From an uncultured Bacillota bacterium (GTDB lineage Bacteria > Bacillota > DTU025 > MWDF01): a DNA stretch of 64,000 bases. The stretch spans positions 266,964 through 330,963 of the forward strand of contig CAWGMK010000013.1 of the NCBI GenBank assembly GCA_963823655.1. Direction: 5' to 3'. A program made the translations under genes and the position numbers. Of this stretch, positions 15,994-45,436 are shown one piece after another. Each line of letters begins with the position of its first letter. Position 1 is the stretch's first letter. A model generated the notes under the pieces. That model had not been told where the DNA came from, made no database searches, and saw nothing but the letters and a program-made list of their open reading frames with translations.

Positions 15994-16041
15994 TAACAAG
16001 TACTTCAGCGCGAAAGGACCATGACAATACGGAGGTGCCTT

Positions 16042-17124
16042 ATGAGCAACGCAGGAAGAGGCCCGATTACCGTACTTGCTGTAAATCCGGGCTCGACTTC
16101 AACCAAGGCGGCCGTCTTCACTGACGGCAAGCTGTCGGAATCATTCAGCATAGAGCATGACAAAGCGGTCCTTGATTCGCTGGGGGCAATCAAGGACCAG
16201 CTCACATACAGACTGGATGGTATAAGAGCCGCCCTTGTCCACGACGCCGGATGCCTTGACGGGCTGAGCGCAGTAGTGGGAAGGGGCGGCCTTCTCAAAC
16301 CTATGGAGGGCGGGGTGTATGAGGTCGGCCTCAAAATGGTCGAAGATGCCCTGGAGCGCCCCATGGCGCAGCATGCGGCAAATCTCGGCTGTGCGCTTGC
16401 CTTCAACCTTGCAAAGGAGCACGGTGTGCCCGCCTATATAGTGGATGCCGTCTGTACGGACGAGTACGAGCCCGAAGCCCGCATATCGGGGCTTCCCGCG
16501 GTGCCCAGGATATCCTTCCTGCACGCCCTCTCTGCGAGGGCATCTGCCAGAAGGGCCGCCTCCGAGCTCGGCCTGGCCTTCGAAAAGGCGAGCTTCGTCG
16601 TAGCGCACATGGGAGGCGGGACCACAATCTGCTCGGTCAGGGGCGGAAGGCTAATCGATGCCAACAACTCAAATGACGAAGGACCTTTCACACCTGAAAG
16701 GACCGGCACTCTGCCGGCTGGCTCGGTTGTGGATATTTGTTATTCGGGCAAGTACACTAAGCAGCAGCTAAGAGACATATTCCTTCGCAAAAGCGGCCTG
16801 TTCGGATATACCGGCACCAATGACGCCAGGGAGATAATCAAAAGGATTGAGGCCGGCGACGAGAAGGCGAGGGAAGTCATGTCAGCCATGGCATACCAGA
16901 CAGCAAAAGAGATAGGCGCCTATGCCGCGGTCCTTTCCGGGAAACAGGACGCGGTCGTGCTGACCGGAGGCCTTGCTAACTGGTCCATGTTCGTCCAGGA
17001 GCTTACAGGATACATTTCATTTTTAGGCAAAATCCTTGTGTATCCGGGAGAGAATGAGATGCAGGCGCTTGGCGAAGGCGCAACGCTTGCCGTAATGGGC
17101 AAAGTGCCCGTGAAGAAATACTGA
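16042..17124 (+). CDS. buk: Butyrate (branched-chain fatty acid) kinase
   Basis: VLAVNPGSTSTKAAVF N-terminus and acetate/butyrate kinase family fold; RBS acggaggtg. Confidence 0.85.
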   Translation: MSNAGRGPITVLAVNPGSTSTKAAVFTDGKLSESFSIEHDKAVLDSLGAIKDQLTYRLDGIRAALVHDAGCLDGLSAVVGRGGLLKPMEGGVYEVGLKMVEDALERPMAQHAANLGCALAFNLAKEHGVPAYIVDAVCTDEYEPEARISGLPAVPRISFLHALSARASARRAASELGLAFEKASFVVAHMGGGTTICSVRGGRLIDANNSNDEGPFTPERTGTLPAGSVVDICYSGKYTKQQLRDIFLRKSGLFGYTGTNDAREIIKRIEAGDEKAREVMSAMAYQTAKEIGAYAAVLSGKQDAVVLTGGLANWSMFVQELTGYISFLGKILVYPGENEMQALGEGATLAVMGKVPVKKY

Positions 17125-17140: not shown

Positions 17141-18048
17141 ATGCTGAATACCTTCCAGCAGATTATCGATGAGGCAAAAAGGGGCGGCAAACAGCGAATA
17201 GCGATAGCCGCCGCAAATGACGCCGATGTCCTGGAGGCTGTCAAAATGGCGATGGAAATCGGGCTTGCCGATTTCACGCTGTTCGGGGACCTGGCCTCCA
17301 TTAGGCAGACTGGCAAAGGAAGTCGGGCTGAGCCTTAAAGATGTAGAGATAGTCGACGAACCAATCCTTACAACCGCCGCGCTCAAAGCCGTGCAGCATG
17401 TCAGCTCCGGCAAGGCAGGAACCCTTATGAAGGGCCTAATAGGCACGTCCGATTTTCTAAGGGCAGTGCTCGACAAGGAAGTGGGCCTCCGGACAGGAAA
17501 CCTCCTATCCCATGTGGCCGTCATCAAATCGTGCCAGGTTCGACAGGTTCTTCTACCTTACCGACGGGGGCATGAACATATCGCCCACGCTCGAGCAGAA
17601 GGTACAGATAATCGGAAACGCCGTTAAAGTGGCCCATGCGCTGGGCAATCCGGAACCAAAGGTGGCCTGCATATCAGCGGTGGAGATTGTAAATCCCGAC
17701 ATTGCGGCCACGATGGATGCCGCACTTCTCGCGAAGATGAGCGACAGGAAACAGATCAAAGGCTGCATAGTCGACGGCCCGTTCGGCCTGGATAATGCGG
17801 TTTCAGCTGAAGCGGCCAAACATAAGGGGGTAACAGGCCCTGTGGCCGGCCAGGCTGAGATTCTGATGTGCCCCGACATTAACACGGGAAATGTGATCTA
17901 CAAGGCCCTGAGCTACTTCGCCGACATCGAATGCGGCGCAATGATCGCGGGGGCAAGGGCCCCGATAGTGCTCACCAGCAGGGCCGATTCGCCCAGGACC
18001 AAGCTTTTATCGATGGCGACTGCAGCAGCTGTTGCCCGCAACTCCTGA
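17141..18048 (+). pseudogene. ptb: Phosphate butyryltransferase, interrupted by two frame changes (about 17300 and 17535)
   Basis: Three consecutive ORFs in different frames each match successive parts of Ptb (RIAIAAANDADVLEAV.. / ..SSGKAGTLMKGLIGTSDFLRAVL..LSHVAV / ..FYLTDGGMNISPTLEQK..). Confidence 0.7.
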
Positions 18049-18070
18049 AAGTAAATCAAGGAGGTTCAAA

Positions 18071-19138
18071 ATGAGGCTCCTTATAATTAACCCCGGCTCG
18101 ACTTCAACAAAGGTTGCCCTTTTCGAAGGCCTGAGCCAGACGGCGGCCGAGACTCTGAGGCATTCCCCGGAGCAGCTTTCCCCATACCCAACCATAGCCG
18201 ACCAGCTCGATTTCAGGGCTGCCGAGGTCAGCGATTTCCTCATGGCCCAGGGCAACCCTCCTTTGGACGCAGTAATGGGAAGAGGCGGTCTGCTCCCACC
18301 AATGCCAAGCGGTGTCTATGAGGTTGATGATGCCCTCATGGAGAAGCTGCTGCATCCTTCAGGCCAGCATGCATCCAACCTCGGGGGACTGATCGCAAAG
18401 AAGATCGCCGCCGAGAGGGGCATCCGTGCTTTCATTGCGGACAGCGTAACCACGGATGAGCTCTGCCCTCTGGCGAGATATTCGGGAAGCCCCCTAATTC
18501 AGAGGGTCAGCATCTTCCATGCGCTCAACCAGAAATCCATAGCAAGGCACGCCGCAAAGGACATGGGCAGGCCTTATGAGGAACTGAACCTGATAGTCTG
18601 CCACTTAGGAGGCGGCGTAAGCGTCGGAGCCCATCACAATGGAAGGGTAGTAGACGTAAACAACGCGCTGGACGGCGACGGGCCGTTAGCCCCCGAAAGG
18701 GCAGGAACCTTACCTTTAAACGGCCTTTTAGACCTCTGCTATTCCGGGCAGTACACGCACTCCCAGGCAAGGAAGCTGCTAACTGGCGGCGGGGGTTTCG
18801 TAGCCCATTTGAGCACCAATTCGGGGACCAAGCTCGAAGAGATGGTTGCCGCGGGGGATAAGAAGGCTGAGCTCATCGAAAAAGCCTTCGCGTACACCCT
18901 GGCCAAAGAAGTGGGCCGCATGGCCGCCGTCTTGAAAGGTAAAGTCGACGCAATCATAATTACCGGCGGACTGGCCCATTCCGAGAGGATATGTTCTATG
19001 ATAAAAGAGATGGTGGGAGCCTTCGGGGAAGTGAAATGCTACCCCGGGGAGGATGAGATGAAAGCCTTGGCCGAGGCCGGCGAAAGGGTGCTCGGCTCTG
19101 CCCGCCAAATGCCACCGAAAGGAGGTCAGCCTTGTTGA
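18071..19138 (+). CDS. buk2: Butyrate kinase paralog
   Basis: MRLLIINPGSTSTKVALF. RBS aaggagg; second acetate/butyrate-kinase family member. Confidence 0.85.
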   Translation: MRLLIINPGSTSTKVALFEGLSQTAAETLRHSPEQLSPYPTIADQLDFRAAEVSDFLMAQGNPPLDAVMGRGGLLPPMPSGVYEVDDALMEKLLHPSGQHASNLGGLIAKKIAAERGIRAFIADSVTTDELCPLARYSGSPLIQRVSIFHALNQKSIARHAAKDMGRPYEELNLIVCHLGGGVSVGAHHNGRVVDVNNALDGDGPLAPERAGTLPLNGLLDLCYSGQYTHSQARKLLTGGGGFVAHLSTNSGTKLEEMVAAGDKKAELIEKAFAYTLAKEVGRMAAVLKGKVDAIIITGGLAHSERICSMIKEMVGAFGEVKCYPGEDEMKALAEAGERVLGSARQMPPKGGQPC

Positions 19139-21722: not shown

Positions 21723-21798
21723 CCTCACGCACTGGCAGACTACCCGGGCGCTTCTTGCAATAAGGTGCGCCCGGGTTTTCAATTCGGAAGGGGGAATC

Positions 21799-22356
21799 AT
21801 GTTGAAGTGCTCGTGCGCGAAAACATCCAAAGAGGTAAGGCTCAGCGGGGGCACAGTCTTCCGGGGCAGAATAATGACGGTAGAAGAAGATAGCGTGCTT
21901 CTTCCAACGGGAGGCACTTCCACAAGGGAGGTAGTGCGCACCGCAGATTTGATATCGGCAGGGATAATCGACGCAGATGGCAAGATATGCCTCGTCAGGC
22001 AGTACAGATACCCTGCCGAGAGGCTTCTTTGGGAGATACCGGCAGGAAGGATAGAGCCCGGAGAGGAGCCGGAAGATGCCGCAGTGCGCGAAGCAGGCGA
22101 GGAGACCGGCCTTCGATGCGAGATAAAAAGCAAGATAGCGGGATTTTACCTTGCCGCGGGCTTTGCCACCGAGTATATGCATATGTACCTTATGGAGATC
22201 ACCGGAAAGTCCGACGCGAAGCCGGACGAAGATGAGGATATTGAAACCGCATTCTTCGGCGAAGCGGAGCTCATGCAAATGCTCGATGACGGCAGCATAG
22301 AAGATTCCAAGACGCTGATCTTCCTGAACTGGTATTTCAGAACCCGCCCCAGATGA
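21799..22356 (+). CDS. nudF: NUDIX hydrolase (ADP-ribose pyrophosphatase-like)
   Basis: Nudix box GRIEPGEEPEDAAVREAGEETG. Confidence 0.8.
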   Translation: MLKCSCAKTSKEVRLSGGTVFRGRIMTVEEDSVLLPTGGTSTREVVRTADLISAGIIDADGKICLVRQYRYPAERLLWEIPAGRIEPGEEPEDAAVREAGEETGLRCEIKSKIAGFYLAAGFATEYMHMYLMEITGKSDAKPDEDEDIETAFFGEAELMQMLDDGSIEDSKTLIFLNWYFRTRPR

Positions 22357-22415
22357 CGGCCGGCTAAGGCATGGTATAATATAATATTATGTAAACATGC
22401 AAGAGAGGTGCGCCG

Positions 22416-23321
22416 ATGCTGGAGGAGTTGGAGGACTATCTGAATTTCCTTGCAGTGGAAAAGGGCCTTTCGGAGAACACCCTTTACTCCTATGCGAGGG
22501 ACCTCATGGACTTTGAGCAGTTCCTCGCCGCGAAGTGCGGCGCTAAGTCCTGCTCTGCGGCCATGGTGCTGACTGCGGACGGTTCCACCGTGTCGGCTTT
22601 CGTGTCGCATTTGTCCGTAGCGGGGCTTTCTGCAGCCAGCGCATCCCGCAAGCTTACTACTATTAGGGGCCTCTATAAATACCTGCTGCGGCAGGGCGCC
22701 ATGAAATCGGACCCGGCATCCAGCGTAGAGTCGATCAAGCAGCACAGGACGCTGCCCAAATGCCTTAGCATGGATGAGACCAAGTCGCTCATTGATTCTC
22801 TCAAGAAGAACAGCCCGAGAGAGCTGAGGGACCTGGCGATGCTTGAGGTGCTTTACGGCTGCGGGCTCAGGGTAAGCGAACTCGTCAACCTCAAGGTAGG
22901 CGATGTGAATACCGAGCACGGCTATGTAAGGTGCATCGGCAAGGGCTCAAAGGAAAGGATAGTCCCTTTAGGCTCGTTCGCGGCCAAGGCAGTTGACGAT
23001 TATATGTCATACGGAAGGTCCGCAATTTGCAATATGAAGCCGAGCTCCTGGCTGTTCGTCACATCCGACGCCAGCCCGATGAGCAGGCAGGCTTTCTGGA
23101 AGAACCTGAAGAAAAGGTGCTTGGAGGCAGGCATCAGCTCAGAGGTTAGCCCCCACACCCTCAGGCACTCTTTTGCAACTCACCTTTTGGAAAATGGTGC
23201 GGATCTAAGATCGGTGCAGGAGATGCTAGGACATGCCGACATTGGCACGACGCAGATATATACTCATCTAACGAAGGCAAAGCTCAGGCAGGTATATGAT
23301 AAGCATCACCCCAGATCGTGA
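22416..23321 (+). CDS. xerD: Site-specific tyrosine recombinase XerD
   Basis: C-terminal catalytic HTLRHSFATHLLENGADLRSVQEMLGHADIGTTQIYTHL; conserved nudF-xerD-deoB neighbourhood. Confidence 0.9.
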   Translation: MLEELEDYLNFLAVEKGLSENTLYSYARDLMDFEQFLAAKCGAKSCSAAMVLTADGSTVSAFVSHLSVAGLSAASASRKLTTIRGLYKYLLRQGAMKSDPASSVESIKQHRTLPKCLSMDETKSLIDSLKKNSPRELRDLAMLEVLYGCGLRVSELVNLKVGDVNTEHGYVRCIGKGSKERIVPLGSFAAKAVDDYMSYGRSAICNMKPSSWLFVTSDASPMSRQAFWKNLKKRCLEAGISSEVSPHTLRHSFATHLLENGADLRSVQEMLGHADIGTTQIYTHLTKAKLRQVYDKHHPRS

Positions 23322-23333
23322 CAGGAGGCAGGT

Positions 23334-24520
23334 ATGCTAGCGACTCAAGGAAAAGGGCGATTATATTGGTTCTGGACGGAGTAGGGGCCGGGCAGCTGCC
23401 GGACGCCGCCTTCTTATAATGACGAGGGCAGCAATACGCTTGCCAACACCGCGCTTGCCGCAGGAGGCCTGAGCTTGCCTACACTTGGCTCCCTGGGCCT
23501 TGGAAATGCCGTAGGCCTTTCCGGGCGGAGCATGCTCGGCGTTGAACCGGCGGCAGCTCCTCTTGCCCGGTGGGGCCGCCTTGGCGAGCTGTCGCCTGGG
23601 AAAGACTCCACTACGGGGCATTGGGAGATGGCAGGATGCGTACTTGAGAAGGCCTTCCCGCTCTATCCGAAGGGATTTCCAAAGGAGATACTCGACGAGT
23701 TCGTGAAGCAGACCGGCCGCGGCGTGCTCTGCAACCTCCCATATTCGGGGACTGATGTAATCCGCGATTACGGCGATGAGCATCTGGATACGGGCAAGCT
23801 GATAGTTTACACTTCTGGCGATTTTGTCTTCCAGATTGCGGCGCATACGGATATCGTCCCTCTGGAGGAGCTATATTCGGCATCTGTGAAAGCGCGACAG
23901 ATACTAATCGGCGAGCATGAAGTCGGCAGGGTGATAGCGAGGCCTTTCGCAGGCCCTCGCGGAGCATATGTGCGGATCGGTGCCAAAAGGCGCGACTTTG
24001 CCATAGAGCCGCCCGTGCCCAACTCTACTGCAGCTTGTGAAGGACTCCGGGCTTAATGTCATGGGGTGCGGCAAGATCGATGATCTCTTCGCAAACAAAG
24101 GCTTGACCCATTCAAGGCATGTATCAGGCAACAAGGCGACGATGGAGGCCCTCATGCAGTTCATGGACGAGGGGCAAGCCGGGCTGATCTTCGCCAACTG
24201 CGTCGACTTCGACATGCTATACGGCCACAGGAATGACTATCAAGGGCATGGCAAGCGCCCTTGAGGAAGTCGATGCCCTTATAGCCGATGTAATGGGCAG
24301 GATGGGGGAGTCGGACCTTATAATTATTACGGCCGACCACGGAAACGACCCCACAACGCCAAGCACCGATCATAGCAGGGAGTATACTCCTGTTCTCGTT
24401 TGGGCGCCCGGCATTGATGCCTTAGGCATCGGAGACAGGAAGAGCTTCGCCGACGTCGGCGCCACCGTCGCCAAATGGCTGGGGGTTGGTTGGGGACTGC
24501 CCGGCGAGAGCATTGCTTAG
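23334..24520 (+). pseudogene. deoB: Phosphopentomutase, fragmented by at least four frame changes
   Basis: DeoB segments appear in successive frames: RAIILVLDGVGAG.., NDEGSNTLANT.., the 23475..24056 ORF, the 24037..24264 ORF and the 24233..24520 ORF (..ITADHGNDPT..). Confidence 0.7.
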
Positions 24521-28203: not shown

Positions 28204-28854
28204 GTGTTTATTATGGTAGTAGCAGTGATTGGTCTCGGAGTATTCGGCGTTTCAGTTGCCTTAAAGCTCGCATATGAAGGCGCCGAAGTATTCGCCATCG
28301 ACAAGGAAGAGGAAAAGGTCAAGAAGTACGCAAATTTCGTTACTCATGCCGTTTCGGCTGACGTTACCGATAGGGACGCCATGGAGAGCATCGGCATCAG
28401 GAACGTGGACGTGGCCGTCATAACGACCGCCTCCGATATAACGATGTCGGTCGTGGGAACCATGGTGCTCAAGGAGCTGGGTATCCCCAGGGTAATCGCG
28501 AAGGCGAAGGATGAGATGCACGGCAGAATTTTGCAGGCTGTCGGCGCCAGCCGCGTTGTCTACCCCGAGAAGGAGGCCGGCGAGAGGCTGGCCCACTCCA
28601 TACTCTCGAACAACTTCATCGATCTCATTGAACTCGATCCTAGGTTCTCAATTCTCGAGATCAAGGCGCCGGAGAAGATTGTGGGCAGGACACTCAAGCA
28701 GATAGACGTAAGGGCCAAGTACGGCGTTAACATAGTAGCCGTCAAATCGGCGGACAAATGGATACTGACGCCGGGGGCCAACGATGTAATAAAGCAGAAT
28801 GACATTCTAGTCACCATAGGCTCGAACGAGGATTTGGAGAAGTTCAAGGAATGA
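28204..28854 (+). CDS. TrkA/KtrA-family K+ transport regulatory protein (RCK N+C domains)
   Basis: VIGLGVFGVSVALKL Rossmann motif and RCK_C domain. No adjacent TrkH/KtrB membrane partner. Confidence 0.7.
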   Translation: MFIMVVAVIGLGVFGVSVALKLAYEGAEVFAIDKEEEKVKKYANFVTHAVSADVTDRDAMESIGIRNVDVAVITTASDITMSVVGTMVLKELGIPRVIAKAKDEMHGRILQAVGASRVVYPEKEAGERLAHSILSNNFIDLIELDPRFSILEIKAPEKIVGRTLKQIDVRAKYGVNIVAVKSADKWILTPGANDVIKQNDILVTIGSNEDLEKFKE

Positions 28855-29510
28855 CAGAACAGAGGATATCCAAATATCTCGCCTATTGCGGCATCGCCTC
28901 CAGACGCAAGTCGGAGGCTTTCGTCACATCGGGCAGAGTCAGCGTAAACGGCGAGACCATCACGGATTTAGCCTACAAAGTGAACCCTGATGACAAGGTT
29001 TGCCTTGATGGCCGGCCGATCACTCCTGCGGGCAACTTCATCTATATCATGTTGAATAAACCCAGGGGCTACCTTACCACAGCATCGGACGATCGCGGCC
29101 GCAAGACCGTAATGTCCCTTATAGAGCCCGGAGAGCATAGGGTTTTCCCTGTCGGCAGGCTAGATCTGGATTCGGAAGGCCTTCTTTTGCTGACAGACGA
29201 CGGCGACCTGGCGTTCCGGCTAACACACCCGGGAAAGAATATAGACAAGAAATATGTGGCGGCACTTAGCAATCCTATAAAAGAGGATTTCTTACAGATT
29301 TTGCGAATAGGTATTATGTTAGACGAGACTTTGACCTCACCGGCAAAGGTTAGGAAGGTGCACCCTTCCGGCCTCATAATTGAGGTTGTGATCCATGAGG
29401 GCAGGAAGCGGCAGGTTAGGCGCATGGTAGAGGCAGCAGGTAGCAGGGTATCTCTCACTGAAGCGCACCGAACTGGGGCCCTTGCAGCTGGGTTCGCTGA
29501 AAACCGGTGA
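28851..29510 (+). CDS. rluB: rRNA pseudouridine synthase (RluB/RsuA family), with a probable frame change near the C-terminus (about 29455)
   Basis: S4 domain (ISKYLAYCGIASRRKSEAFVTSGRVSVNG) and a catalytic domain. The conserved C-terminal GEWRYLTEDEV continues in the adjacent frame. Confidence 0.8.
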   Translation: MTEQRISKYLAYCGIASRRKSEAFVTSGRVSVNGETITDLAYKVNPDDKVCLDGRPITPAGNFIYIMLNKPRGYLTTASDDRGRKTVMSLIEPGEHRVFPVGRLDLDSEGLLLLTDDGDLAFRLTHPGKNIDKKYVAALSNPIKEDFLQILRIGIMLDETLTSPAKVRKVHPSGLIIEVVIHEGRKRQVRRMVEAAGSRVSLTEAHRTGALAAGFAENR

Positions 29511-29587
29511 ATGGAGATATCTGACTGAGGACGAGGTTCTGAACCTTAGGCAATTAGGAGACAAAGTCCCCGAAAGGAGGGCCGGCG

Positions 29588-29929
29588 ATGATAAAGAGGA
29601 TCAAGAACAATAGTGGCTTAACGGCAGTCGAGGTAATCGTTGCCGCCGTAATCCTCGTTATTGCATCTGTATCCCTGCTTGGGCTCTATAACAGCAATTT
29701 CGGCTGGATTATTGGGGCCGGTTTCAGGACAGAGGCCGTTGATAAGGCAAAGGCATTGATTGATGCGAAAATCGCGGCCGGGGCAGCTACAGGTTCGACC
29801 GGCCAGCTGGTAATAAGCTTCACGGGAACTGATGACGTTATTGTAGAGGGCGAGTTCGTCAGGTTCACAGGAACAGACGGCCCTAACGACTCAACATCGG
29901 TGACTCTTAATACATTCATCCCTAAGTAG
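29588..29929 (+). CDS. Prepilin-type N-terminal cleavage/methylation domain protein (type IV pilin/pseudopilin-like)
   Basis: N-terminal KNNSG|LTAVEVIVAAVILVIASVSLLGLY; class III signal peptide with Gly at -1 and Glu at +5. Confidence 0.7.
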   Translation: MIKRIKNNSGLTAVEVIVAAVILVIASVSLLGLYNSNFGWIIGAGFRTEAVDKAKALIDAKIAAGAATGSTGQLVISFTGTDDVIVEGEFVRFTGTDGPNDSTSVTLNTFIPK

Positions 29930-29944
29930 ACAGAAAGGAGGAGG

Positions 29945-30397
29945 CGCTAGTGCTCTTACGCAGGCTGAGAAATCAAAAAGGCGTGACTCTGGTCGAGCTT
30001 ATTCTTGTCATTGCAGTGCTCGGATTTGTGATGGCTGCCGCGCTCTCCTTCTTCTTGATTGGGCACCAGGACATTTTCTTTGGGAAGCAGCCAGGCTAAG
30101 GTACAGCAGGAAGCAAGGCTGGCTACGACTATAGTCAGCGGCGATTTGAGGACTTCCTTGAACGTACGCGCCTATTTCCCGGGGGACACATGGGTTGCAG
30201 ATTTAGACGACTATGTAGTGCAGAGGATAGGGACTGAGGCTCCTTTCTCGCTGATGTATACGAGGCCTAGCGGCAATTTGGAGACAGATTCAGTATTTAC
30301 GAGCCTGGTTTTCAACGTTGTTACAGATGCAAACGGAAAGAGGTTCATCGTTTTCGAAGCAACAGGCGTGGATAGGGCAAAGGCAATATACAATTAA
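29945..30397 (+). pseudogene. Second prepilin-type pilin-like gene (GTG start), with a frame change near 30075
   Basis: LRNQKG|VTLVELILVIAVLGFVMAAALSFF classic pilin N-terminus in one frame. The ORF 30059..30397 continues in the next frame. Confidence 0.55.
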
Positions 30398-30504
30398 TTC
30401 TTCCATGTTGCTCGAAAACTATAATAAGCATCCATTACTCGCAGATGGCGAGGGCTATACAGTTATTGTCTTCGACAAGTAAGTAGCTTTGAAGGAGGGG
30501 CGAC

Positions 30505-31900
30505 ATGAGGCATCTAAAAAGCCAGAAGGGCATCGCTCTCCCTATGGTGTTGCTCATAATAATCGTTCTGATATTGCTGGGTTTCGCACTTTCGGTGTTC
30601 GGTTATTACGAGGCTACATCCGCCATAAGGGAAGAGCACCTAGCAAAGGCATACTACTCTGCACGAGGCAGCGTGGCTGCCCTTGCCAAGTATTTGACTA
30701 CAGTGCCGGCAGACGAGGCTGAGGAACAGGTAATCGCAAATTATGTGACTACGATCGCCACCGATGGCGTAAGCGCCGCGGGTACAATCGAAGGTGTGCC
30801 ATATAATCTTGTTGTGACCCAGGCAAACGATTTCGGTTCTGATCCGCCGTTCGGAGTTCTGACATTGACTTCTACAGGGACTTCAGGACAAGTTCTCCAA
30901 GAGCGCGGTAATACAGATCGGTTATAACCTTACAGAGTATATGAACGACGGCCCATTCGGAATAGTCGACAGCGCTTTGTACTCCTTCAACGAGGCTACT
31001 TCCGGCGGGACATTGTCGGATTATAAAGCAAATGCCAATGGCTTGGTCAAGACAGCACTTGGATCCAGCAGGCATGCAAGTGGACGTAATGGTTGATCCT
31101 TTTGATACCCATACTCCAACCCAGGGACTACCCGATGCCTAACGAACCCGAATTTCCTACTACATTGGAGAACAGGAACGAGTTCTTAGTTGACGACGAT
31201 ACCGCGCCTGACGGAAGTTTCGTCTCTACATCTGTGATTACTATCAACCCCGCAGTAAATTACGATGGCAACAATGACAGGGCCGTAATAGTAGACGGGG
31301 CAGGCGTAATTACCACGATTGTTAATAAAGGGACTCCTACATATATCAAAGTAGCAGGCCTGAACATCACGAAACCTCTGCTTTTCGACGGTAACGCTCC
31401 AGTTTATCTATTGGTTGAGAATTTCCTGAACATCGGAGCCGACGTCGGCTGCTCAAGCAAATGCAAAGAGCATTGCTGGAGTCTATACACATGATGCAGA
31501 ATGCTGGCTCGGTCGCGTGAACATAATATATACTGGATCCGATCCAATAACAGTTTCGGGGAATATTCGTATCAGGGCGAATATCGTCTCTTTGCAGGGA
31601 TCGATAAAGGCGATTGACATTTCAATCGGCGGCAACGTCATAATGAGCGGCCATATCATTTGCGGCGGCGACGAAATCAAGCTGCACGGCGTTTTCGAGG
31701 CTGATAAGACGATGATCTACGCTCCGCTGGCATTGGTAGAGGTTAAAGGCTCTGCCGCATCAAATGACGATGAATACCATATAACAGGGGCGATTGTCGC
31801 CAACCACTTCAATGCAACCGCCTATTTCAATATTGAGTACGCGGCAATTACACGCGCGTCATTGCCATTGTGGTTCGACGCCGAAGACAGCGGCGGGAAC
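30505..31900 (+). pseudogene. Large PilX-like minor-pilin / beta-helix repeat protein, fragmented across at least three frames (30505..30927, 31093..31494, 31517..about 31900)
   Basis: PilX_N-like N-terminus LKSQKG|IALPMVLLIIIVLILLGFALSV. Downstream fragments carry beta-solenoid-like repeats (GNIRIRANIVSLQGSIKAIDISIGGNVIMSGHIICGG). Confidence 0.5.
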
Positions 31901-32012
31901 TTAGGGCGACGAAACGCAAATTGGTACCGGCGAGTATTATCCCAGCAACTTCGCGTTCACACGTTGGTTGAAGTAGCAAGTAATAGGCTATTTTGTGAAA
32001 ATTCGAAGCAGC

Positions 32013-32043
32013 GGCCGGACAGAAATGTCCGGCCCTATTTGTT
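32013..32043 (+). terminator. Rho-independent terminator after the pilin-like cluster
   Basis: ggccggaca-gaaa-tgtccggcc hairpin followed by ctatttgtt. Confidence 0.6.
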
Positions 32044-32102
32044 ATAAAACCCGTTTTGTGTTAACTTATTTTTGTGATAATTCTTTTACGAAGGTTTTGC
32101 CA

Positions 32103-32789
32103 ATGCCTCTGATAAGCTCGATAGCAATAGACGGACCTGCTGGTTCAGGCAAAAGCACAATAGCGAAGATGCTTTCGGCGGCCACTGGCCTTCCCTATCT
32201 AAGCACGGGGGAGATGTACAGGGCCATTGCTTTATGCACTCTAAGGGCCGGAGTCTCGCCTGATGATGCACTTGCTGTCCTTGATTGCGCAAAGAAGGCA
32301 ATGATAGGCGCAAGGCCGGACGGCTCAGGCGGTTTCAGGATCTTCTGCGGCGAAGAGGACGTAACCCCGCTTCTGAGGTCTGCGGAAGTAAGCAGGCTTT
32401 CATCCCCCGTGGCGGTCCATGAAGCCGTTCGGAAGCTCATGGTAGAGCTTCAGAGGAATATCGCAATCGAGAACGATGTAATAATGGACGGCAGGGACAT
32501 CGGCACCGTAGTGCTGAAGGAATCCCAGAATAAGATCTATCTTGACGCATCCGTCGAAGTACGGGCCCGAAGGCGCCTTCTTGACTACAAGGATAAGGAC
32601 ATCAGCTATGAAGAAGTCCTAAGGGATCTAAAGGAGCGCGACAGGCGCGACAGCACAAGGCTCGTCGATCCTTTAAGGCCTGCAGAAGACGCCCTGATTA
32701 TCGACTCTTCAGATATGAGTCCGTCAGAGGTAATTGAAAGCATTTTGACATCATATAGGCTTTTCTACTGGGGGGAGACAACTTGCTGA
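32103..32789 (+). CDS. cmk: Cytidylate kinase
   Basis: IAIDGPAGSGKSTIAKMLS P-loop; Cmk family. Confidence 0.9.
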   Translation: MPLISSIAIDGPAGSGKSTIAKMLSAATGLPYLSTGEMYRAIALCTLRAGVSPDDALAVLDCAKKAMIGARPDGSGGFRIFCGEEDVTPLLRSAEVSRLSSPVAVHEAVRKLMVELQRNIAIENDVIMDGRDIGTVVLKESQNKIYLDASVEVRARRRLLDYKDKDISYEEVLRDLKERDRRDSTRLVDPLRPAEDALIIDSSDMSPSEVIESILTSYRLFYWGETTC

Positions 32790-33415: not shown

Positions 33416-34059
33416 AGCTGTTCATCGACACGGCCAATTTAGAGGAGATCCTCACTGTCGACAGTATGGGCATCATCTGCGGCGTAACTACTAACCCCAC
33501 GCTTATAGCGCGCGAAGGCCATGACCCCGACACAATGGCAATGAAGATAGCCGAGTCGGTCAGTGGCCCCGTCAGCTATGAGGCCGTATCCTTCGATGCC
33601 GAGGGCATAGTCAGGGAGGGCCGGGCGATAGCTGCCATGGCTCCCAATATGGTCGTCAAGGTCCCGCTCACAATAGAGGGCCTTAAGGCAATAAAGACCT
33701 TGTCGCAGTACGGCATCAGGACAAACGCCACCCTCATTTTCAATGAGAACCAGGCATTGCTTGCGGCACGCGCAGGGGCCACATATGTAAGCCTTTTCAT
33801 CGGCAGGCTTGTCGACAAGGGAGTCGACGCCATGGCCATCGTACGCAATACCAGGAGCATATTAGATATGAACGACCTGGATGCGGAGATTATTGCCGCA
33901 TCCATCAGAAATACGGAACAGGTGACGCAGTGCGCGCTTGCCGGCTCGCACATTGCCACTGTGCCCTACAAGATCCTTATGGAAATGGTCGAGCACCCCA
34001 TGACTACGGCTGGCATAGAGAAGTTCATGGATGACTGGAAGAAGGTCTTCGGCAAGTAG
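33412..34059 (+). CDS. tal: Transaldolase / fructose-6-phosphate aldolase family protein (short form)
   Basis: MKLFIDTANLEEI..GVTTNPTLIA motif. Confidence 0.85.
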   Translation: MKLFIDTANLEEILTVDSMGIICGVTTNPTLIAREGHDPDTMAMKIAESVSGPVSYEAVSFDAEGIVREGRAIAAMAPNMVVKVPLTIEGLKAIKTLSQYGIRTNATLIFNENQALLAARAGATYVSLFIGRLVDKGVDAMAIVRNTRSILDMNDLDAEIIAASIRNTEQVTQCALAGSHIATVPYKILMEMVEHPMTTAGIEKFMDDWKKVFGK

Positions 34060-36107
34060 TGGAGATCATTGTCGCAAAAACTGCAGGCTTCTGTGCCGGC
34101 GTCAGGCGGGCGGTCGACATCGCCCTCACTGCTTCTTCAAAAGCGCCTGATGAAGGCTGCAAAGACTGCGTTTCTATAGGGCCTCTGATCCACAATGAGG
34201 ACATGGTACGCGAGCTTGAAAGCAAAGGCGTCCATGTGATAGCTGACATCGACGAAGTGTCAGGCAGGCCCTTGATCATCCCGTCGCACGGCACCAGCAA
34301 AATGGTATCTGTGCATGCAGAGGAACTTGGTTTGCGCATAATCGACGCAACGTGCCCGCATGTCATAAAGCTCAAGCAGTTGGCAATTGAATGGGAACAG
34401 GCAGGCGGGGTCGCCGTAATTGCAGGCGATAAAGGGCATCCGGAGCTCAAAGGGGTAGCCTCATATCTTAATGATCCGATAATCGGCAACGACACAGGCG
34501 AGCTAATGAAAGAGATGGCGGCCCTCCCGGGAAGGCGATTCCTTTTGCTTTCGCAGACAACCGGAATTGCCGAAGATATGGATGCCATGTACGCCACCAT
34601 GAAGGCGGCGGGAATTGATGTAGAATACTGCCGCACGGTCTGCCCTGCCACGCAGCAAAGACAAGCCGAGGTAAGGGCTCTGGCAAATGACACTGATGCT
34701 ATGATAGTCCTCGGCGGCAGAAAGAGCGCAAACACCAACAGGCTTGAGCAAATTGCGAAAAACTCAGGAAAACCTGTATATAGAGCGGCAAATCTGTCAG
34801 AATTGAATTTGGGCGAAATTAAGTCCGCAGGTTTTAGGAAACTTGGCATAACTGCAGGGGCATCGACCCCAAACAGCATTATCGAGGAGGTCGTCAGAGC
34901 AATGATTGAATCCGGCGCAGAGAAAGAGCTCACAATGGCAGAGCTGGAGAAGCTCTATCCCGAGAAAAAAGAAGAAGTCCAGGCAGCACCGAAGAAGAAG
35001 GATCTGCAGGTAGTAACGGGCAAGGTGACGCTTGTTACGGAAGATGAGGTGCTGGCGGACGTGGGGCAGGGCTCGGATGTGCACATACCGAAGAACCAGC
35101 TCACCTTCTCAAAGGCTGTATCACCGCTGAAGATGTTCCAGCTGGGCGATCCCATTACCGTTGCAATAGAGGAGTATGATGCCACCAAGGACGTGCAGTA
35201 CGCCTCCAAGCTGAAGGCAGATGCATTGACCGCATGGCAGAAGGCTCAGGACGCTTTCGAATCCGGCGAGGCCATAGAAGGCGTAATAGTCGAAGCCGTA
35301 AAAGGCGGAGTGGTAGTGGACATGGGTATTAGGGGCTTCATGCCCGCCTCCCAGATAGGGTCCAGGGTTGAGGACCTCAACACACTAATCGGCACCAAGG
35401 TCAAGGCAAAGGTCATAGAGCTGGAGGAATCAAGGAAGGGCGCAGTGCTATCCACCCGCGCGCTTGCCGAGTCGGAAAATGCCAAGCAAAGGCAGGAGAA
35501 TATCGACAAGGTACAGGTAGATGCCATATTCGAAGGCACCGTAAGGAAGCTTATGCCCTTTGGAGCATTCGTCAACCTGCTGCCCGGAATAGACGGCCTG
35601 CTGCACGTATCCGAACTCTCCTGGCAGAGGATCGGCAACCCCTCCGAAGTGCTGAGCGAAGGCATGAAAGTTCAAGTGAAAGTAATCTCAGTGGATAGCG
35701 CCAGGGGGAAAATTTCGCTGAGCATGAAACAGTTGAGCGAGAGGCCTCGTTCTAAGACAGTGACGGCCGATTTGTCGGAAGGCGCTGTATATAAGGGAAC
35801 AGTAGTGAAGCTGATGAACTTCGGCGCATTCGTGAAGATGGAAAACGGCGCCGAGGGCCTCGTGCACGTCTCCCAGATCTCGGAGAAGAGGGTGCAGACC
35901 CCGGACGAGATCCTATCGGTAGGCCAGGAAGTCAAGGTGAAAGTCCTGTCAGTAAACGAGGAGAACGGACGTATCAGCTTATCGATAAAAGACGCTGAGC
36001 TCAAAGAGCAGAGGGACGAATTCGAAGGCTATATGAAATCCGCCGAGGAAGACTTCCAGATTACGATAGCCGACAGGATAAGAATCAAAGGTGAACAGAA
36101 GCGTTAA
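34059..36107 (+). CDS. ispH-rpsA: Bifunctional 4-hydroxy-3-methylbut-2-enyl diphosphate reductase (IspH) / 30S ribosomal protein S1 fusion
   Basis: N-terminal IspH (AGFCAGVRRAV..HNEDMV..ATCPHV) followed by four S1 repeats. GTG start. Confidence 0.85.
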   Translation: MEIIVAKTAGFCAGVRRAVDIALTASSKAPDEGCKDCVSIGPLIHNEDMVRELESKGVHVIADIDEVSGRPLIIPSHGTSKMVSVHAEELGLRIIDATCPHVIKLKQLAIEWEQAGGVAVIAGDKGHPELKGVASYLNDPIIGNDTGELMKEMAALPGRRFLLLSQTTGIAEDMDAMYATMKAAGIDVEYCRTVCPATQQRQAEVRALANDTDAMIVLGGRKSANTNRLEQIAKNSGKPVYRAANLSELNLGEIKSAGFRKLGITAGASTPNSIIEEVVRAMIESGAEKELTMAELEKLYPEKKEEVQAAPKKKDLQVVTGKVTLVTEDEVLADVGQGSDVHIPKNQLTFSKAVSPLKMFQLGDPITVAIEEYDATKDVQYASKLKADALTAWQKAQDAFESGEAIEGVIVEAVKGGVVVDMGIRGFMPASQIGSRVEDLNTLIGTKVKAKVIELEESRKGAVLSTRALAESENAKQRQENIDKVQVDAIFEGTVRKLMPFGAFVNLLPGIDGLLHVSELSWQRIGNPSEVLSEGMKVQVKVISVDSARGKISLSMKQLSERPRSKTVTADLSEGAVYKGTVVKLMNFGAFVKMENGAEGLVHVSQISEKRVQTPDEILSVGQEVKVKVLSVNEENGRISLSIKDAELKEQRDEFEGYMKSAEEDFQITIADRIRIKGEQKR

Positions 36108-42904: not shown

Positions 42905-43483
42905 ATGGATGAGTTCAAGGTACCGGTAGGAATATCCAACAGGCATCTTCACCTGAGCGAGGCGGATCTTCATACTCTTTTCGGAGATGGATCTTGCTTG
43001 ACCGTAAAGAAGCCGCTTTCACAGAAGGGGCAATACGCCTGTGAGGAGCTAGTTACTATAGTAGGACCCAAGGGAAGCCTCAGCAATGTTAGGGTTCTCG
43101 GACCTACAAGGAAGCAGACCCAGGTGGAAGTCTCCAATACAGACGCAAGAGGGCTGGGCCTTGAGCCACCGGTAAGGGACAGCGCAGATCTTGCAGGAAG
43201 CGCGTCCGTAAAGCTTGTAGGGCCCAAGGGCGAGCTTACGTTGCCAGAGGGTTGCATCATTGCCAAGCGCCACATCCATATAAACGACGAAGATGCAGCA
43301 AAGCTTGGCTTGAAGGACAGACAGCTAGTTAAGGCAAAGGTCGCCGGCAACCGTGGGCTGGTCTTTGATGAAGTTCTAATCAGGGTGCATCCGACATTCG
43401 TGCTCGAAATGCACTTGGATACGGATGAGGCTAATGCATGCTCTTTGAAGAACGGCGAGACAGTCACCCTTATAACAGGCTAA
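42905..43483 (+). CDS. pduL: PduL/EutD-type phosphate propanoyl/acyl-transferase
   Basis: PVGISNRHLHLSEADL and a second ..IIAKRHIHIN repeat, characteristic of the PduL family. Confidence 0.75.
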   Translation: MDEFKVPVGISNRHLHLSEADLHTLFGDGSCLTVKKPLSQKGQYACEELVTIVGPKGSLSNVRVLGPTRKQTQVEVSNTDARGLGLEPPVRDSADLAGSASVKLVGPKGELTLPEGCIIAKRHIHINDEDAAKLGLKDRQLVKAKVAGNRGLVFDEVLIRVHPTFVLEMHLDTDEANACSLKNGETVTLITG

Positions 43484-43554
43484 TCAGGGGTGGCGAGCGT
43501 CTTGTGTTGCTGGAAGGCCCTAATGTAAAGACCTGGCTCCATTTCGAAGGCGAA

Positions 43555-43822
43555 ATGGAGTCGGGTTCATCTTCATCGCTAGTCATTGCCATGCTGGGTG
43601 GACGCATCGTCCTTGTCTATAATGTGGCAAGAGGCGGCTGGGAGATACCCGGTGGTAAGCAAGAAGATGGTGAATCGCAGCTGGAATGCGCCCAAAGGGA
43701 GCTGCTACGAAGAAACCGGCCTGTTATCAGGTGAAATGGTCCTTATATGCAGCTATCTGGTAGAAAAAGACGGCCGCCAGATGAAGGGCAACATCTTCGG
43801 ATGCGAAATTAGCGGCCTTTGA
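43555..43822 (+). pseudogene. Small NUDIX hydrolase, with a frame change inside the Nudix box (about 43700)
   Basis: GGKQEDGESQLECAQREL in one frame; EETGLLSGEMV in the next. Confidence 0.55.
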
Positions 43823-44820: not shown

Positions 44821-45436
44821 ATGCAGAGCCTTAACGATAGAGAAGCAAGGATACTTAACTTCATATGCAATGAGGCTTCCGAAAAGGGCTTCCCCCCATC
44901 CGTAAGGGAGATTTGCGCAGCTGTAGGTCTGAAGTCCACCTCGACTGTACATGGCTATCTAAATGCCCTTGAGAAGAAGGGCTTTATAAAGAGGGATTTG
45001 ACCAAGCCTCGGGCTATAGATGTCCTTCAGAATTCCAGCGATTCGCAGAATATGAGAAGGATAGCGAAAAGCGTCCCGCTCATCGGCGCCGTTACTGCGG
45101 GCCTCCCTATCCTGGCGACGGAGAACATTACCGACTATATTCCCCTGCCTAAGGAATGGGTCGGTGAGGACAAGGTCTTCATGTTGAAGTGTTAAAGGCG
45201 ACAGCATGATCAATGCAGGCATATTCGATTCCGATATGCTGGTGGTTAGAAGCCAGTCGGACGCCGAGAACGGCGACATCGTCGTGGCTATGATTGAAGA
45301 CGAAGCAACGGTCAAACGCATGTACAAATCCAAAGGGCGCATCGAACTGCATCCGGAAAACCCATCCTATAGCGTGATAATCTCGGATTCAACCCAAGTA
45401 TTGGGCAAGGTAATAGGCCTTATGAGGAAAATATAA
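44821..45436 (+). CDS. lexA: LexA repressor (apparent 1-nt insertion at about 45190, between the DNA-binding and peptidase domains)
   Basis: N-terminal wHTH (ARILNFICNEASEKGFPPSVREI). The S24 peptidase region (VKGDSMINAGI..VLGKVIGLMRKI) is in the next frame. Confidence 0.8.

Follow-up and report, generated by a model that had tools for sequence, protein, structure and literature searches.

A probable type IV minor-pilin tip module between rluB and cmk in an uncultured Bacillota lineage

The window analysed here is a 64-kb stretch of DNA, and its positions 29588-31976 hold a block of three co-oriented genes, g1, g2 and g3, each with a prepilin-type N-terminus (Table 1). The block follows rluB so closely that the 3' end of rluB and the start of g1 share 26 nt. 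The rluB frame itself is broken by one extra A at 29450, where two frames join as ...GSRV/LSLKRTELGPLQLGSLKTGEWRYL.... An AAGGAGG Shine-Dalgarno sequence lies upstream of g1, and no promoter-like site was detected within the block. As the initial annotation had noted, the block ends at a terminator: the hairpin at 32013-32034 has a 9-bp stem with seven G-C pairs and a 4-nt loop, is followed by a T-rich tail and has a folding z of -3.3. It is the sole terminator-like hairpin on the plus strand between 25.5 and 33 kb, is also kept in the related locus L001, and cmk starts beyond it at 32104. A six-frame motif scan of the window returned the prepilin-like N-termini of g1, g2 and g3 and one chance match inside an oxidoreductase, and an Rfam scan of the window returned only four tRNAs, with no match in the block.

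Table 1. Features of the block and its borders (window positions).
Feature	Position	Strand	Basis
rluB (pseudouridine synthase, context gene)	28851..29613	+	Pfam S4 + PseudoU_synth_2 in orthologues; alignment to intact L001/L005 orthologues
g1, small minor pilin, 113 aa, intact	29588..29929	+	class III signal, orthologues
g2, medium minor pilin, 176 aa frame-corrected	29950..30482	+	N_methyl, TIGR02532, L001 orthologue
g3, large putative tip pilin, ~488 aa frame-corrected	30505..31976	+	intact orthologues, family, AF2 model, ComZ match
g3 predicted pilin-like domain	30505..30940	+	AF2 secondary structure; family profile vs ComZ
g3 predicted beta-rich solenoid-like insert, aa ~158-450	30975..31860	+	AF2 short strands; DUF7305 in orthologues
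g3 predicted extreme C-terminal beta-strand, last ~12 codons, ...YYPSNFAFTRWLK	31938..31973	+	AF2 strand; conservation
Intrinsic-terminator-like hairpin + T-rich tail	32013..32043	+	folding score, L001 conservation

The three class III N-termini on which the initial annotation was built are all present, at 29588, 29950 and 30505. g1 begins with MIKRIKNNSG/LTAVEV (the slash marks the cleavage site), a class III signal with Glu5. Against Pfam N_methyl (PF07963) it scores 19.5 bits, just under the cutoff of 21.2, and its orthologues match in nine of nine cases (best 1.5e-6), with 42 invariant columns in their alignment. g2 begins with (V/M)LLRRLRNQKG/VTLVEL, also a class III signal, and exceeds the cutoffs of both N_methyl (34.3 bits; cutoff 21.2) and TIGR02532 (25.7 bits; cutoff 16.3). 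The g2 orthologue in L001 is intact, 176 aa long and 94% identical. In the orthologues of both genes, the Gly at the cleavage site and Glu5 show strict conservation. Profile searches of the PDB gave matches confined to the N-terminal helices, with pilin N-termini matched by g2 at 2.4e-5. From size, gene order and partnership, we infer that g1 is a PilI/GspI-like subunit and g2 a PilJ/GspJ-like subunit.

g3 begins with MRHLKSQKG/IALPMVLL, with Gly at -1 and Met at +5, and thus lacks Glu5. In the record it is split into ORFs at 30505-30927, 30941-31096, 31093-31494 and 31517-32047. Read across five +1 frameshifts, it has no internal stop; its last 22 codons lie in yet another frame, past an insertion at 31903, and it ends at a TAG at 31974-31976, not at 32047. 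The corrected protein is ~488 aa long (494 aa in the working reconstruction), and it aligns over its full length with intact orthologues of 466-490 aa. The earlier description of a large PilX-like protein appears to hold for its class, that of PilX without Glu5, but not for its length, which had been put at about 450 aa. The quoted repeat GNIRIRANIVSLQGSIKAIDISIGGNVIMSGHIICGG is present; it lies in the solenoid-like insert (GNIRIRANIV...HIICGG), the part of g3 that corresponds to DUF7305.

The g3 family comprises 969 cluster representatives from Bacillota, mostly of 420-510 aa with full-length matches, and 'pilus assembly PilX N-terminal domain-containing protein' is among its NCBI names. Gly occupies position -1 in 100 of 101 aligned members, and none has Glu at +5. 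Among 70 members scanned, 68 match DUF7305 and 27 match PilX_N (best 1e-14); some also match pAdhesive_15 (ice-binding-like), bactofilin or DUF2807. The window g3 has no Pfam match of its own, PilX_N (PF14341) included, and a g3 paralogue in locus L005 reaches 24.6 bits against the PilX_N cutoff of 25.5. For DUF7305 (PF23981), with a gathering score of 27 bits, the C-terminal fragment in the window reaches 16.9 bits and no match is obtained with the reconstructed protein, while the orthologues P0008, P0010 and P0009 score 32.9, 31.2 and 28.3 bits. DUF7305 membership thus holds for the g3 family and is sub-threshold for the window sequence. A literature search for DUF7305 found no paper.

The g3 structure was modelled with AF2 from a 113-sequence alignment (pLDDT 80.6); a first AlphaFold model from 11 sequences (pLDDT 56.5, best PDB match E 0.7) was dropped in its favour. 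In the retained model, a long N-terminal helix (aa 11-65) and a second helix (71-86) lead into a four-stranded antiparallel sheet (aa 90-144), with pLDDT 85-98 across aa 11-140. Runs of short strands are predicted for aa ~158-450, and the chain closes with a strand at aa 482-493 (pLDDT 86-90). This terminal strand contains residues invariant among orthologues, and its Y/F and W are maintained throughout the wider family. We propose that it may complete the sheet of the pilin domain in cis, since the predicted topology fits the description of ComZ (PMC6561018) and the cis-strand model of CpaL/GspK (PMC13533445).

Foldseek comparison of the g3 model with the PDB gave E <0.001 for three chains only, all of them ComZ (6QVI; best E 5.8e-5, probability 0.97). 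Searched against PDB sequences, the g3 family profile likewise returned ComZ at the top (E 2e-4), with its positions 43-174 aligned to ComZ residues 8-163, and an ice-binding protein second (E 0.059). The best match of an orthologue-only PDB search, a phage baseplate beta-helix, was non-significant (E 0.07). The predicted fold of g3 is ComZ-like, with a GspK-like pilin domain and a beta-solenoid before the last strand, in agreement with the beta-helix-like repeats noted at the outset. ComZ itself is described as a GspK-like pilin whose last strand is preceded by an inserted beta-solenoid, and a tip location has been argued for it (PMC6561018). Globally, the g3 model and ComZ superpose with TM-scores of 0.17-0.19 and an rmsd of 21 A, so their domain arrangement may differ.

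The trio lies between rluB and cmk in all nine distinct loci of the lineage, among which the neighbouring housekeeping proteins mostly go down to ~64-80% identity, and cmk lower. Between the window and L001, dN/dS of the trio is 0.05-0.08 (g1 0.084, g2 0.052, g3 0.062), as low as between intact pairs. The trio is fixed and under purifying selection in this lineage. A RluB-anchored metagenome scan, which returned only distant relatives (<=51% identity), gave the deep gene order: in several distant bacteria rluB is followed by a gap of ~1-1.8 kb and then by plsC, without the trio, with an ispH-like gene next in one locus. Of the accessory insertion suggested in the initial annotation, what stands is that the block interrupts an older gene order still seen in distant bacteria, but a strain-variable island is not supported, given its presence in 9/9 loci, the purifying selection and the overlap of g1 with rluB. 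A recent mobile insertion was rejected: neither an integrase nor repeats nor a tRNA lies at the borders, GC content dips by only ~5 points, and the block is a fixed feature of all relatives.

As had been remarked earlier, no assembly machinery lies nearby. We found no pilus ATPase, platform protein, peptidase (peptidase A24 included), PilM/N/O or major pilin in the 64-kb window or up to 10 kb away from the trio in nine related loci, and no secretin in the window. The cluster is conserved at this position, but machinery is not adjacent to it. In three distant relatives (L012, L013 and L014), by contrast, a small/medium/large trio sits inside a complete type IV pilus locus. In Evansella cellulosilytica, pilB-pilT-pilC-pilin-pilD-pilM adjoins genes of 142, 157 and 484 aa, and in two further loci pilM/N/O, pilD and pilB/C/T adjoin large, small and medium genes. 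The g1 profile aligns along its whole length with the small partner genes of L013 and L014 (E ~3e-7), and the medium partners in L012, L013 and L014 are matched by the g2 profile (E 6e-9 to 1e-14). Linkage of homologous trios with type IV filament machinery is seen in L012, L013 and L014, and the ten loci of this lineage have no machinery nearby.

Bacillota pilus-locus proteins with PilX_N and DUF7305, such as Evansella cellulosilytica WP_013489680.1 and the DUF7305 protein of Thermoclostridium caenicola, belong to one family with g3 by profile (E 1e-25 to 1e-23): they are of equal length and have homologous small and medium partner genes. They adjoin pilB/pilC/pilD/pilM-O and major pilins, whereas the window trio stands apart from any such genes. 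The likeness to Thermus thermophilus ComZ extends to a pilin domain with a large predicted beta-solenoid, the lack of the canonical Glu5 and adjacent small minor pilins. However, identity to ComZ is ~10-11%, and ComZ is encoded within the pilA1-A4/comZ locus of a diderm, whereas the trio lies within the rluB operon of an uncultured Bacillota bacterium. The trio also resembles GspI-GspJ-GspK and PilI-PilJ-PilK (PilV-PilW-PilX) in its adjacent small, medium and large genes, of which the large one lacks Glu5, and the conserved extreme C-terminal strand of g3 is in line with the model of cis beta-strand licensing (PMC7248040, PMC13533445). Unlike GspI/J/K, it has no GspH/FimU-like fourth core pilin and no T2SSK Pfam match, and the insert of g3 is a predicted beta-solenoid in place of the alpha-helical insert of GspK.

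A large tip-associated protein with a beta-rich middle, predicted or from the literature, is shared with CpaL/TadG and the Caldicellulosiruptor tapirins, and the N-terminal pilin-like domain of CpaL is completed by its own C-terminus (PMC13533445). In contrast to these systems, the trio shows no sequence or profile match to them, no Tad genes and no Flp-type pilins; the one tapirin match covered the hydrophobic N-terminus of g2 only (E 0.19). A Tad/Flp pilus, one of the initial suggestions, found no support: a Flp-like match of 16.1 bits was sub-threshold (cutoff 33.5) and fell on a hydrophobic helix, the weak Flp_Fap matches in 4/9 orthologues (5.5e-4) also fell on the hydrophobic helix, and no locus contains tad genes. 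A bactofilin-type, polymer-forming protein fared no better, being matched weakly by only three of the 70 family members, which reflects common beta-helix geometry. A PilY1/PilC-type adhesin was likewise set aside, since no beta-propeller Pfam or NCBIfam match was found and the g3 N-terminus is of pilin type.

Taken together, the block can be recognised as one of a known kind in a lineage of uncultured anaerobic-digester Bacillota. Because g3 relatives stand beside g1 and g2 homologues in full pilus loci and ComZ is the sole significant structural match, we consider it likely that g1, g2 and g3 form a PilI/PilJ/PilK-type minor-pilin module for tip initiation of a type IV filament, with the machinery encoded elsewhere and the frameshifts most likely assembly errors. 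The evidence thus favours the earlier suggestion of a minor-pilin or tip module serving a pilus whose genes lie elsewhere. Trimer formation, the tip location, the ligand and machinery elsewhere in the genome are what we infer from this reading. The trio would be co-transcribed with rluB in a transcription unit ended by the terminator, and a prepilin peptidase encoded elsewhere would process all three products. g1, g2 and g3 would then assemble in the membrane as a PilI/PilJ/PilK-type (GspI/J/K-type) initiation complex, which would prime polymerisation of a major pilin encoded elsewhere and subsequently remain at the filament tip. g3 would act as the cap, with its GspK-like domain lacking Glu5 and its solenoid possibly offering a surface to which DNA or a solid substrate could bind.

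Seven +1 insertions break g2 (~30058 and 30375) and g3 (~30890, 31054, 31105, 31465 and 31903), which amounts to seven in 2.0 kb versus ~0.2 per kb elsewhere in the window (~20x). This density favours a decaying relic, in which the frameshifts would be real, g2 and g3 would be pseudogenes and the tip module would have been lost, for example under selection by phage or otherwise directed at the surface. Decay would also fit the fragments P0011 and P0027, which stand in the public record as called proteins, and the independent breakage of g3 by a 34-nt deletion (membrane helix) in L001 and by a 2-nt deletion in GCGCGC in an allele of L009, where split and intact alleles both recur across many assemblies. 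However, the isolated single-base differences from intact L001 inside the block are all insertions in the window sequence, with zero deletions, and most inserted bases are not in homopolymers; the few paired indels in the most divergent stretches of the block go in both directions. The inserted bases are purines in 12/12 cases at 29450-32747 and pyrimidines in 5/5 cases at 21780-24513, which looks like strand-specific read error. Corrected g2 and g3 contain no in-frame stops and keep all invariant family residues, and the low dN/dS values equal those of intact pairs. Similar frame breaks split infB, mutS and lexA, and deoB has single-base insertions of the same kind; this window-wide pattern behind the fragmentation had been overlooked in the initial annotation. 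Since the pattern is all insertions and essential genes such as infB are also affected, the seven g2/g3 frameshifts are probably assembly errors, and gene decay appears unlikely. Programmed frameshifting was rejected, as all seven sites lie outside slippery or homopolymer tracts. Read-level support is needed before any broken gene of this record is called a pseudogene.

The tip module might, more specifically, be a competence DNA receptor like ComZ whose solenoid binds extracellular DNA; it would then serve a Com or type IV pilus given over to DNA uptake and not to adhesion. ComZ, the only significant structural and PDB-sequence match, binds DNA and the adjacent minor pilin and is needed for transformation, not for piliation (PMC6561018), and g1 shows weak ComGE-like similarity (E 0.016). 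Nevertheless, besides the low identity to ComZ, its two DNA-binding lysines could not be placed on g3, the family also matches ice-binding-like 'adhesive' domains, and the relatives' loci encode retraction ATPases of the PilT type along with PilM/N/O, a set characteristic of general type IV pili; we therefore regard this specialisation as a minority reading of fairly low probability. A non-filament surface set, made up of adhesins anchored by their N-terminal helices or of a housekeeping envelope factor without a pilus machine, would account for the location in a housekeeping operon, the absence of machinery nearby in ten loci, the overlap of g1 with rluB and the lack of a promoter-like site within the block. 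This seems very unlikely, because the conservation of Gly and Glu5 in g1 and g2 is explained only by prepilin processing and filament packing and because homologous trios in other bacteria form part of pilus loci.

The tip-module reading, through ComZ and the PilI/J/K model, offers a working function for a large uncharacterised Bacillota family (PilX_N-like with DUF7305, at least 969 clusters). It also suggests that core minor pilins can sit far from their machinery, in a housekeeping operon, which matters for genome-based calls of pilus presence or absence in uncultured organisms. More speculatively, and in our view improbably, a ComZ-like tip module may have become uncoupled from the pilus machine it served and been built lineage-wide into a trpS-scpAB-trkA-rluB operon, with g3 repeatedly switched off in natural populations. 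If such uncoupling occurred, the tip complex would be made constitutively and filament assembly controlled elsewhere, and switching of g3 would mean that a surface receptor varies, by on/off switching or between alleles, under pressure from phages or competition. Four observations would point toward such switching of g3, namely the 2-nt slip in GCGCGC, the 34-nt deletion, a raised synonymous divergence and the additional paralogue carried by one subclade.

The three pilin-like genes between rluB and cmk (small g1, medium g2 and large g3) are likely a tip-initiation module of a type IV filament. In this reading g3 would be a cap resembling ComZ, the Thermus thermophilus tip pilin (PDB 6QVI), exposing its solenoid as a binding surface, and the ATPase, platform protein, peptidase and major pilin would be encoded elsewhere, outside the block. 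The initial annotation had suggested such a module for a pilus encoded elsewhere, and we favour it on the basis of homologous trios in pilus loci and a structural match to ComZ.

All three prepilin-type N-termini claimed for these genes are present, and a six-frame motif scan of the 64 kb returned only these and one chance match within an oxidoreductase. A strong Shine-Dalgarno sequence precedes each gene. Against Pfam N_methyl (PF07963, cutoff 21.2 bits), g2 passes clearly with 34.3 bits and g1 falls narrowly short with 19.5 bits; the g1 orthologues match in 9/9 cases (best 1.5e-6). The g3 N-terminus has Gly at -1, without Glu at +5. The start of g1 and the end of rluB share 26 nt, suggesting that a trpS-scpA-scpB-trkA-rluB transcription unit probably has the trio at its 3' end. 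As previously described, the block ends at a hairpin, which is the only terminator-like site on its strand within 25.5-33 kb.

Features of the pilin-like block, its surroundings and the g3 model (window positions unless a locus or aa is given)
Feature	Position	Details
rluB	28851-29613	upstream flank of trio
g1	29588-29929	same strand as g2, g3; 113 aa, intact; N-terminus MIKRIKNNSG/LTAVEV
g2	29950-30482	same strand as g1, g3; N-terminus LLRRLRNQKG/VTLVEL; two frame changes
g3	30505-31976	same strand as g1, g2; N-terminus MRHLKSQKG/IALPMVLL; five frame changes
terminator-like hairpin	32013-32043	9-bp G+C-rich stem, T-rich tail
cmk	32104-32789	downstream flank of trio
ispH/S1 fused gene	34059-36107	682 aa
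frame-changing extra bases in rluB, g2, g3	29450, 30058, 30375, 30890, 31054, 31105, 31465, 31903	alignment to L001
further extra bases	29929, 29950, 32006, 32747	alignment to L001
kinase-like ORFs	16021-17124, 18032-19138	about 367 aa each
phosphotransacetylase-like fragment	17512-18048	flanked by kinase-like ORFs
g3 paralogue (fourth gene)	L005:11432-12931, L003:9163-10662, L006:11418-12917, L007:8661-end	
Secretin_N protein	L013:1904-3733	609 aa
g3 model, long N-terminal helix	aa 11-65	then second helix; AlphaFold
g3 model, four-stranded sheet	aa 90-144	AlphaFold
g3 model, beta-rich region of short strands	aa about 158-450	AlphaFold
g3 model, confident final strand	aa 482-493	AlphaFold

Three distant members of the g3 family lie beside small and medium pilin-like genes inside complete type IV pilus loci: in Evansella cellulosilytica (pilB-pilT-pilC-pilin-pilD-pilM, divergent from 142-, 157- and 484-aa genes), on a Thermoclostridium-like contig (pilD, pilT, pilC, pilM/N/O, pilB, then 513-, 108- and 163-aa genes, then pilT and two pilins) and on a third contig (pilM/N/O and pilD, then 447-, 119- and 174-aa genes). 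The g1 profile matches their small partners over the full length (E about 3e-7), and the g2 profile their medium partners (E 1e-14 to 6e-9). The GspI/J/K complex (PilV/W/X or PilI/J/K) starts filament assembly and provides the cap (PMC7248040); the trio repeats its small/medium/large pattern, including a large subunit without Glu5, and we infer that g1 is I-like and g2 J-like. Moreover, a C-terminal strand has been proposed to complete the K-subunit sheet, and GspK, the Com pilus K-homologue and CpaL to provide it in cis (PMC13533445); the conserved terminal strand predicted for g3 agrees with this proposal. A nominally monoderm, Thermoclostridium-like contig also has a Secretin_N protein within its type IV pilus locus.

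An exhaustive profile search recovered 969 cluster representatives of the wider g3 family (251 at E <=1e-10), most of them 420-510 aa long and matched over their whole length. Among 70 members scanned, 68 matched DUF7305 (PF23981) and 27 PilX_N (PF14341; best 1e-14); an ice-binding-like adhesive domain (9/70), bactofilin (3/70) and DUF2807 (3/70), all beta-helical families, were also found. In NCBI, members carry the name 'pilus assembly PilX N-terminal domain-containing protein' or 'DUF7305 domain-containing protein'. Nearly all have Gly at -1, Glu at +5 never occurs and a Y/F...W motif is kept in the last residues; at the family level, the PilX_N matches and the missing Glu accord with the earlier term "PilX-like".

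The AlphaFold model of g3 (pLDDT 80.6, 113-sequence alignment) matched solely three T. thermophilus ComZ chains in the PDB at E <0.001 (best E 5.8e-5, probability 0.97), and the family profile ranked ComZ top among PDB sequences (E 2e-4), with an ice-binding protein second (E 0.059). [quoted passage not shown] The predicted topology of g3 agrees with this description. A ComZ-like role in DNA uptake, which would specialise the tip-module reading by making g3 a DNA receptor instead of an adhesin, is possible but unlikely. A filament-independent membrane role for the trio, whose homologues reside in pilus loci, appears highly improbable. Beyond routine annotation, the tip-module reading links DUF7305 to ComZ and places a core minor-pilin module apart from all machinery, in a housekeeping operon, throughout an uncultured lineage; otherwise, the trio belongs to an already known kind of system.

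In a set of 5.8 billion proteins, close relatives of g3 number only about ten; they can be aligned over their entire length at 37-84% identity, and the complete ones measure 466-490 aa. They occupy nine distinct loci, in MAGs, mostly digester-derived, that bear the labels uncultured Clostridia bacterium, Bacillota bacterium or Firmicutes bacterium ADurb.Bin153. The order trpS-scpA-scpB-trkA-rluB-g1-g2-g3-cmk-plsC-tal-ispH/rpsA is kept in all nine. As the initial annotation had stated, no assembly machinery lies nearby: we found no pilus machinery within 10 kb of the trio in any of these loci or across the 64-kb window, where the other genes are housekeeping (for example DNA polymerase III alpha subunit, nusA, infB, truB, ribF, mutS, mutL, miaA). 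None of 80 distant rluB loci from metagenomes carries the trio, and in several of them rluB is followed, after ~1-1.8 kb, by plsC, with an ispH-like gene next in one. Taken together, the nine-locus conservation and this trio-less order indicate, from gene order, that the block breaks into an older arrangement and is an old event fixed in the lineage. The proposed accessory insertion is therefore an interruption but not a strain-level accessory island; the trio is conserved at its position, yet without adjacent machinery.

In the more distant loci, identity of the neighbouring housekeeping proteins mostly falls at about 64-80%, and is lower for cmk. By tblastn, cmk shares 78% amino-acid identity with L001, the closest related locus (neighbours 94-97%), and 41-51% with deeper relatives (neighbours about 80%); a second comparison gave higher values (90% to L001, 73% to L005), and the figures span only about 185-198 of 228 residues, so that the excess divergence of cmk is uncertain. 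The fusion of ispH (LytB) with a four-domain S1 (rpsA-like) gene is kept in all related loci.

Aligned to L001 (85% nucleotide identity across the block), each frame change in rluB, g2 and g3 is one extra base in the window. Of the further extra bases, three are non-coding, one of them (29950) converting the g2 start from ATG to GTG, and 32747 lies within the divergent 3' end of cmk. Removing the extra bases leaves no in-frame stops and yields 176 aa for g2 and about 488 aa for g3 (494 aa in our working reconstruction, which retains junction residues from both frames); g3 is thus large as described, but exceeds the earlier estimate of about 450 aa. Corrected g3 keeps 53/53 orthologue-invariant columns, and dN/dS against L001 is 0.084 for g1, 0.052 for g2 and 0.062 for g3, with 0.02-0.09 between intact-locus pairs.

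Frameshifts split many housekeeping genes of the window, including the essential infB (~7355). Insertions of this single-base type disrupt a deoB-like gene twice (24023, 24241), a PpiC/SurA-like gene (36805) and mgtC (40637); a NUDIX-like gene (43438-43822) is also split, and the breaks in infB, mutS (~56100-56280, minus strand) and lexA (44821-45436) were seen without a relative for comparison. Wherever a relative exists, the housekeeping frameshifts are +1 insertions on the window side. Purines account for 12/12 inserted bases at 29450-32747 and pyrimidines for 5/5 at 21780-24513, suggesting strand-specific read errors in low-coverage parts of a long-read assembly; few sit in homopolymers. 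Fragments of g3, one of 176 aa and one of 140 aa, are called proteins in public databases, and the errors therefore belong to the deposited record. Very likely, the frameshifts are assembly errors at the read level, clustered where coverage or polishing was poor. The roughly 20-fold frameshift enrichment in g2-g3 is not fully explained, and genuine recent pseudogenisation in this strain therefore stays a minority possibility, though a rather improbable one. Within the region, divergence between strains is also highest in this block (60-88% identity per 100 nt). Elsewhere, two paralogous ORFs match an acetate/butyrate kinase model, C-terminal half only; frameshifts may have damaged them too, or they may be unusual kinases.

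Relatives vary at g3. In one subclade, g3 and cmk are separated by a fourth gene, a 500-aa g3 paralogue of about 27% identity (PilX_N 24.6 bits, DUF7305 41 bits), which is absent from the window, L001, L004/L008, L009 and L010. Compared with L010, g3 of L009 (10380-10620) lacks 2 nt of a GCGCGC run, splitting the 469-aa product into 180 aa plus 277 or 285 aa; split and intact alleles each recur across many independent public assemblies. In L001, a 34-nt deletion (9983) removes the membrane helix of g3. These disruptions hint at natural on/off alleles and could reflect such variation of the tip protein. The window and L001 show a dS of 1.36 at g3, about double that at g1, g2, trkA and plsC (0.50-0.75), and the centre of g3 (31000-31500) is only 64-77% identical to L001; this may reflect allele exchange at the tip-protein gene.
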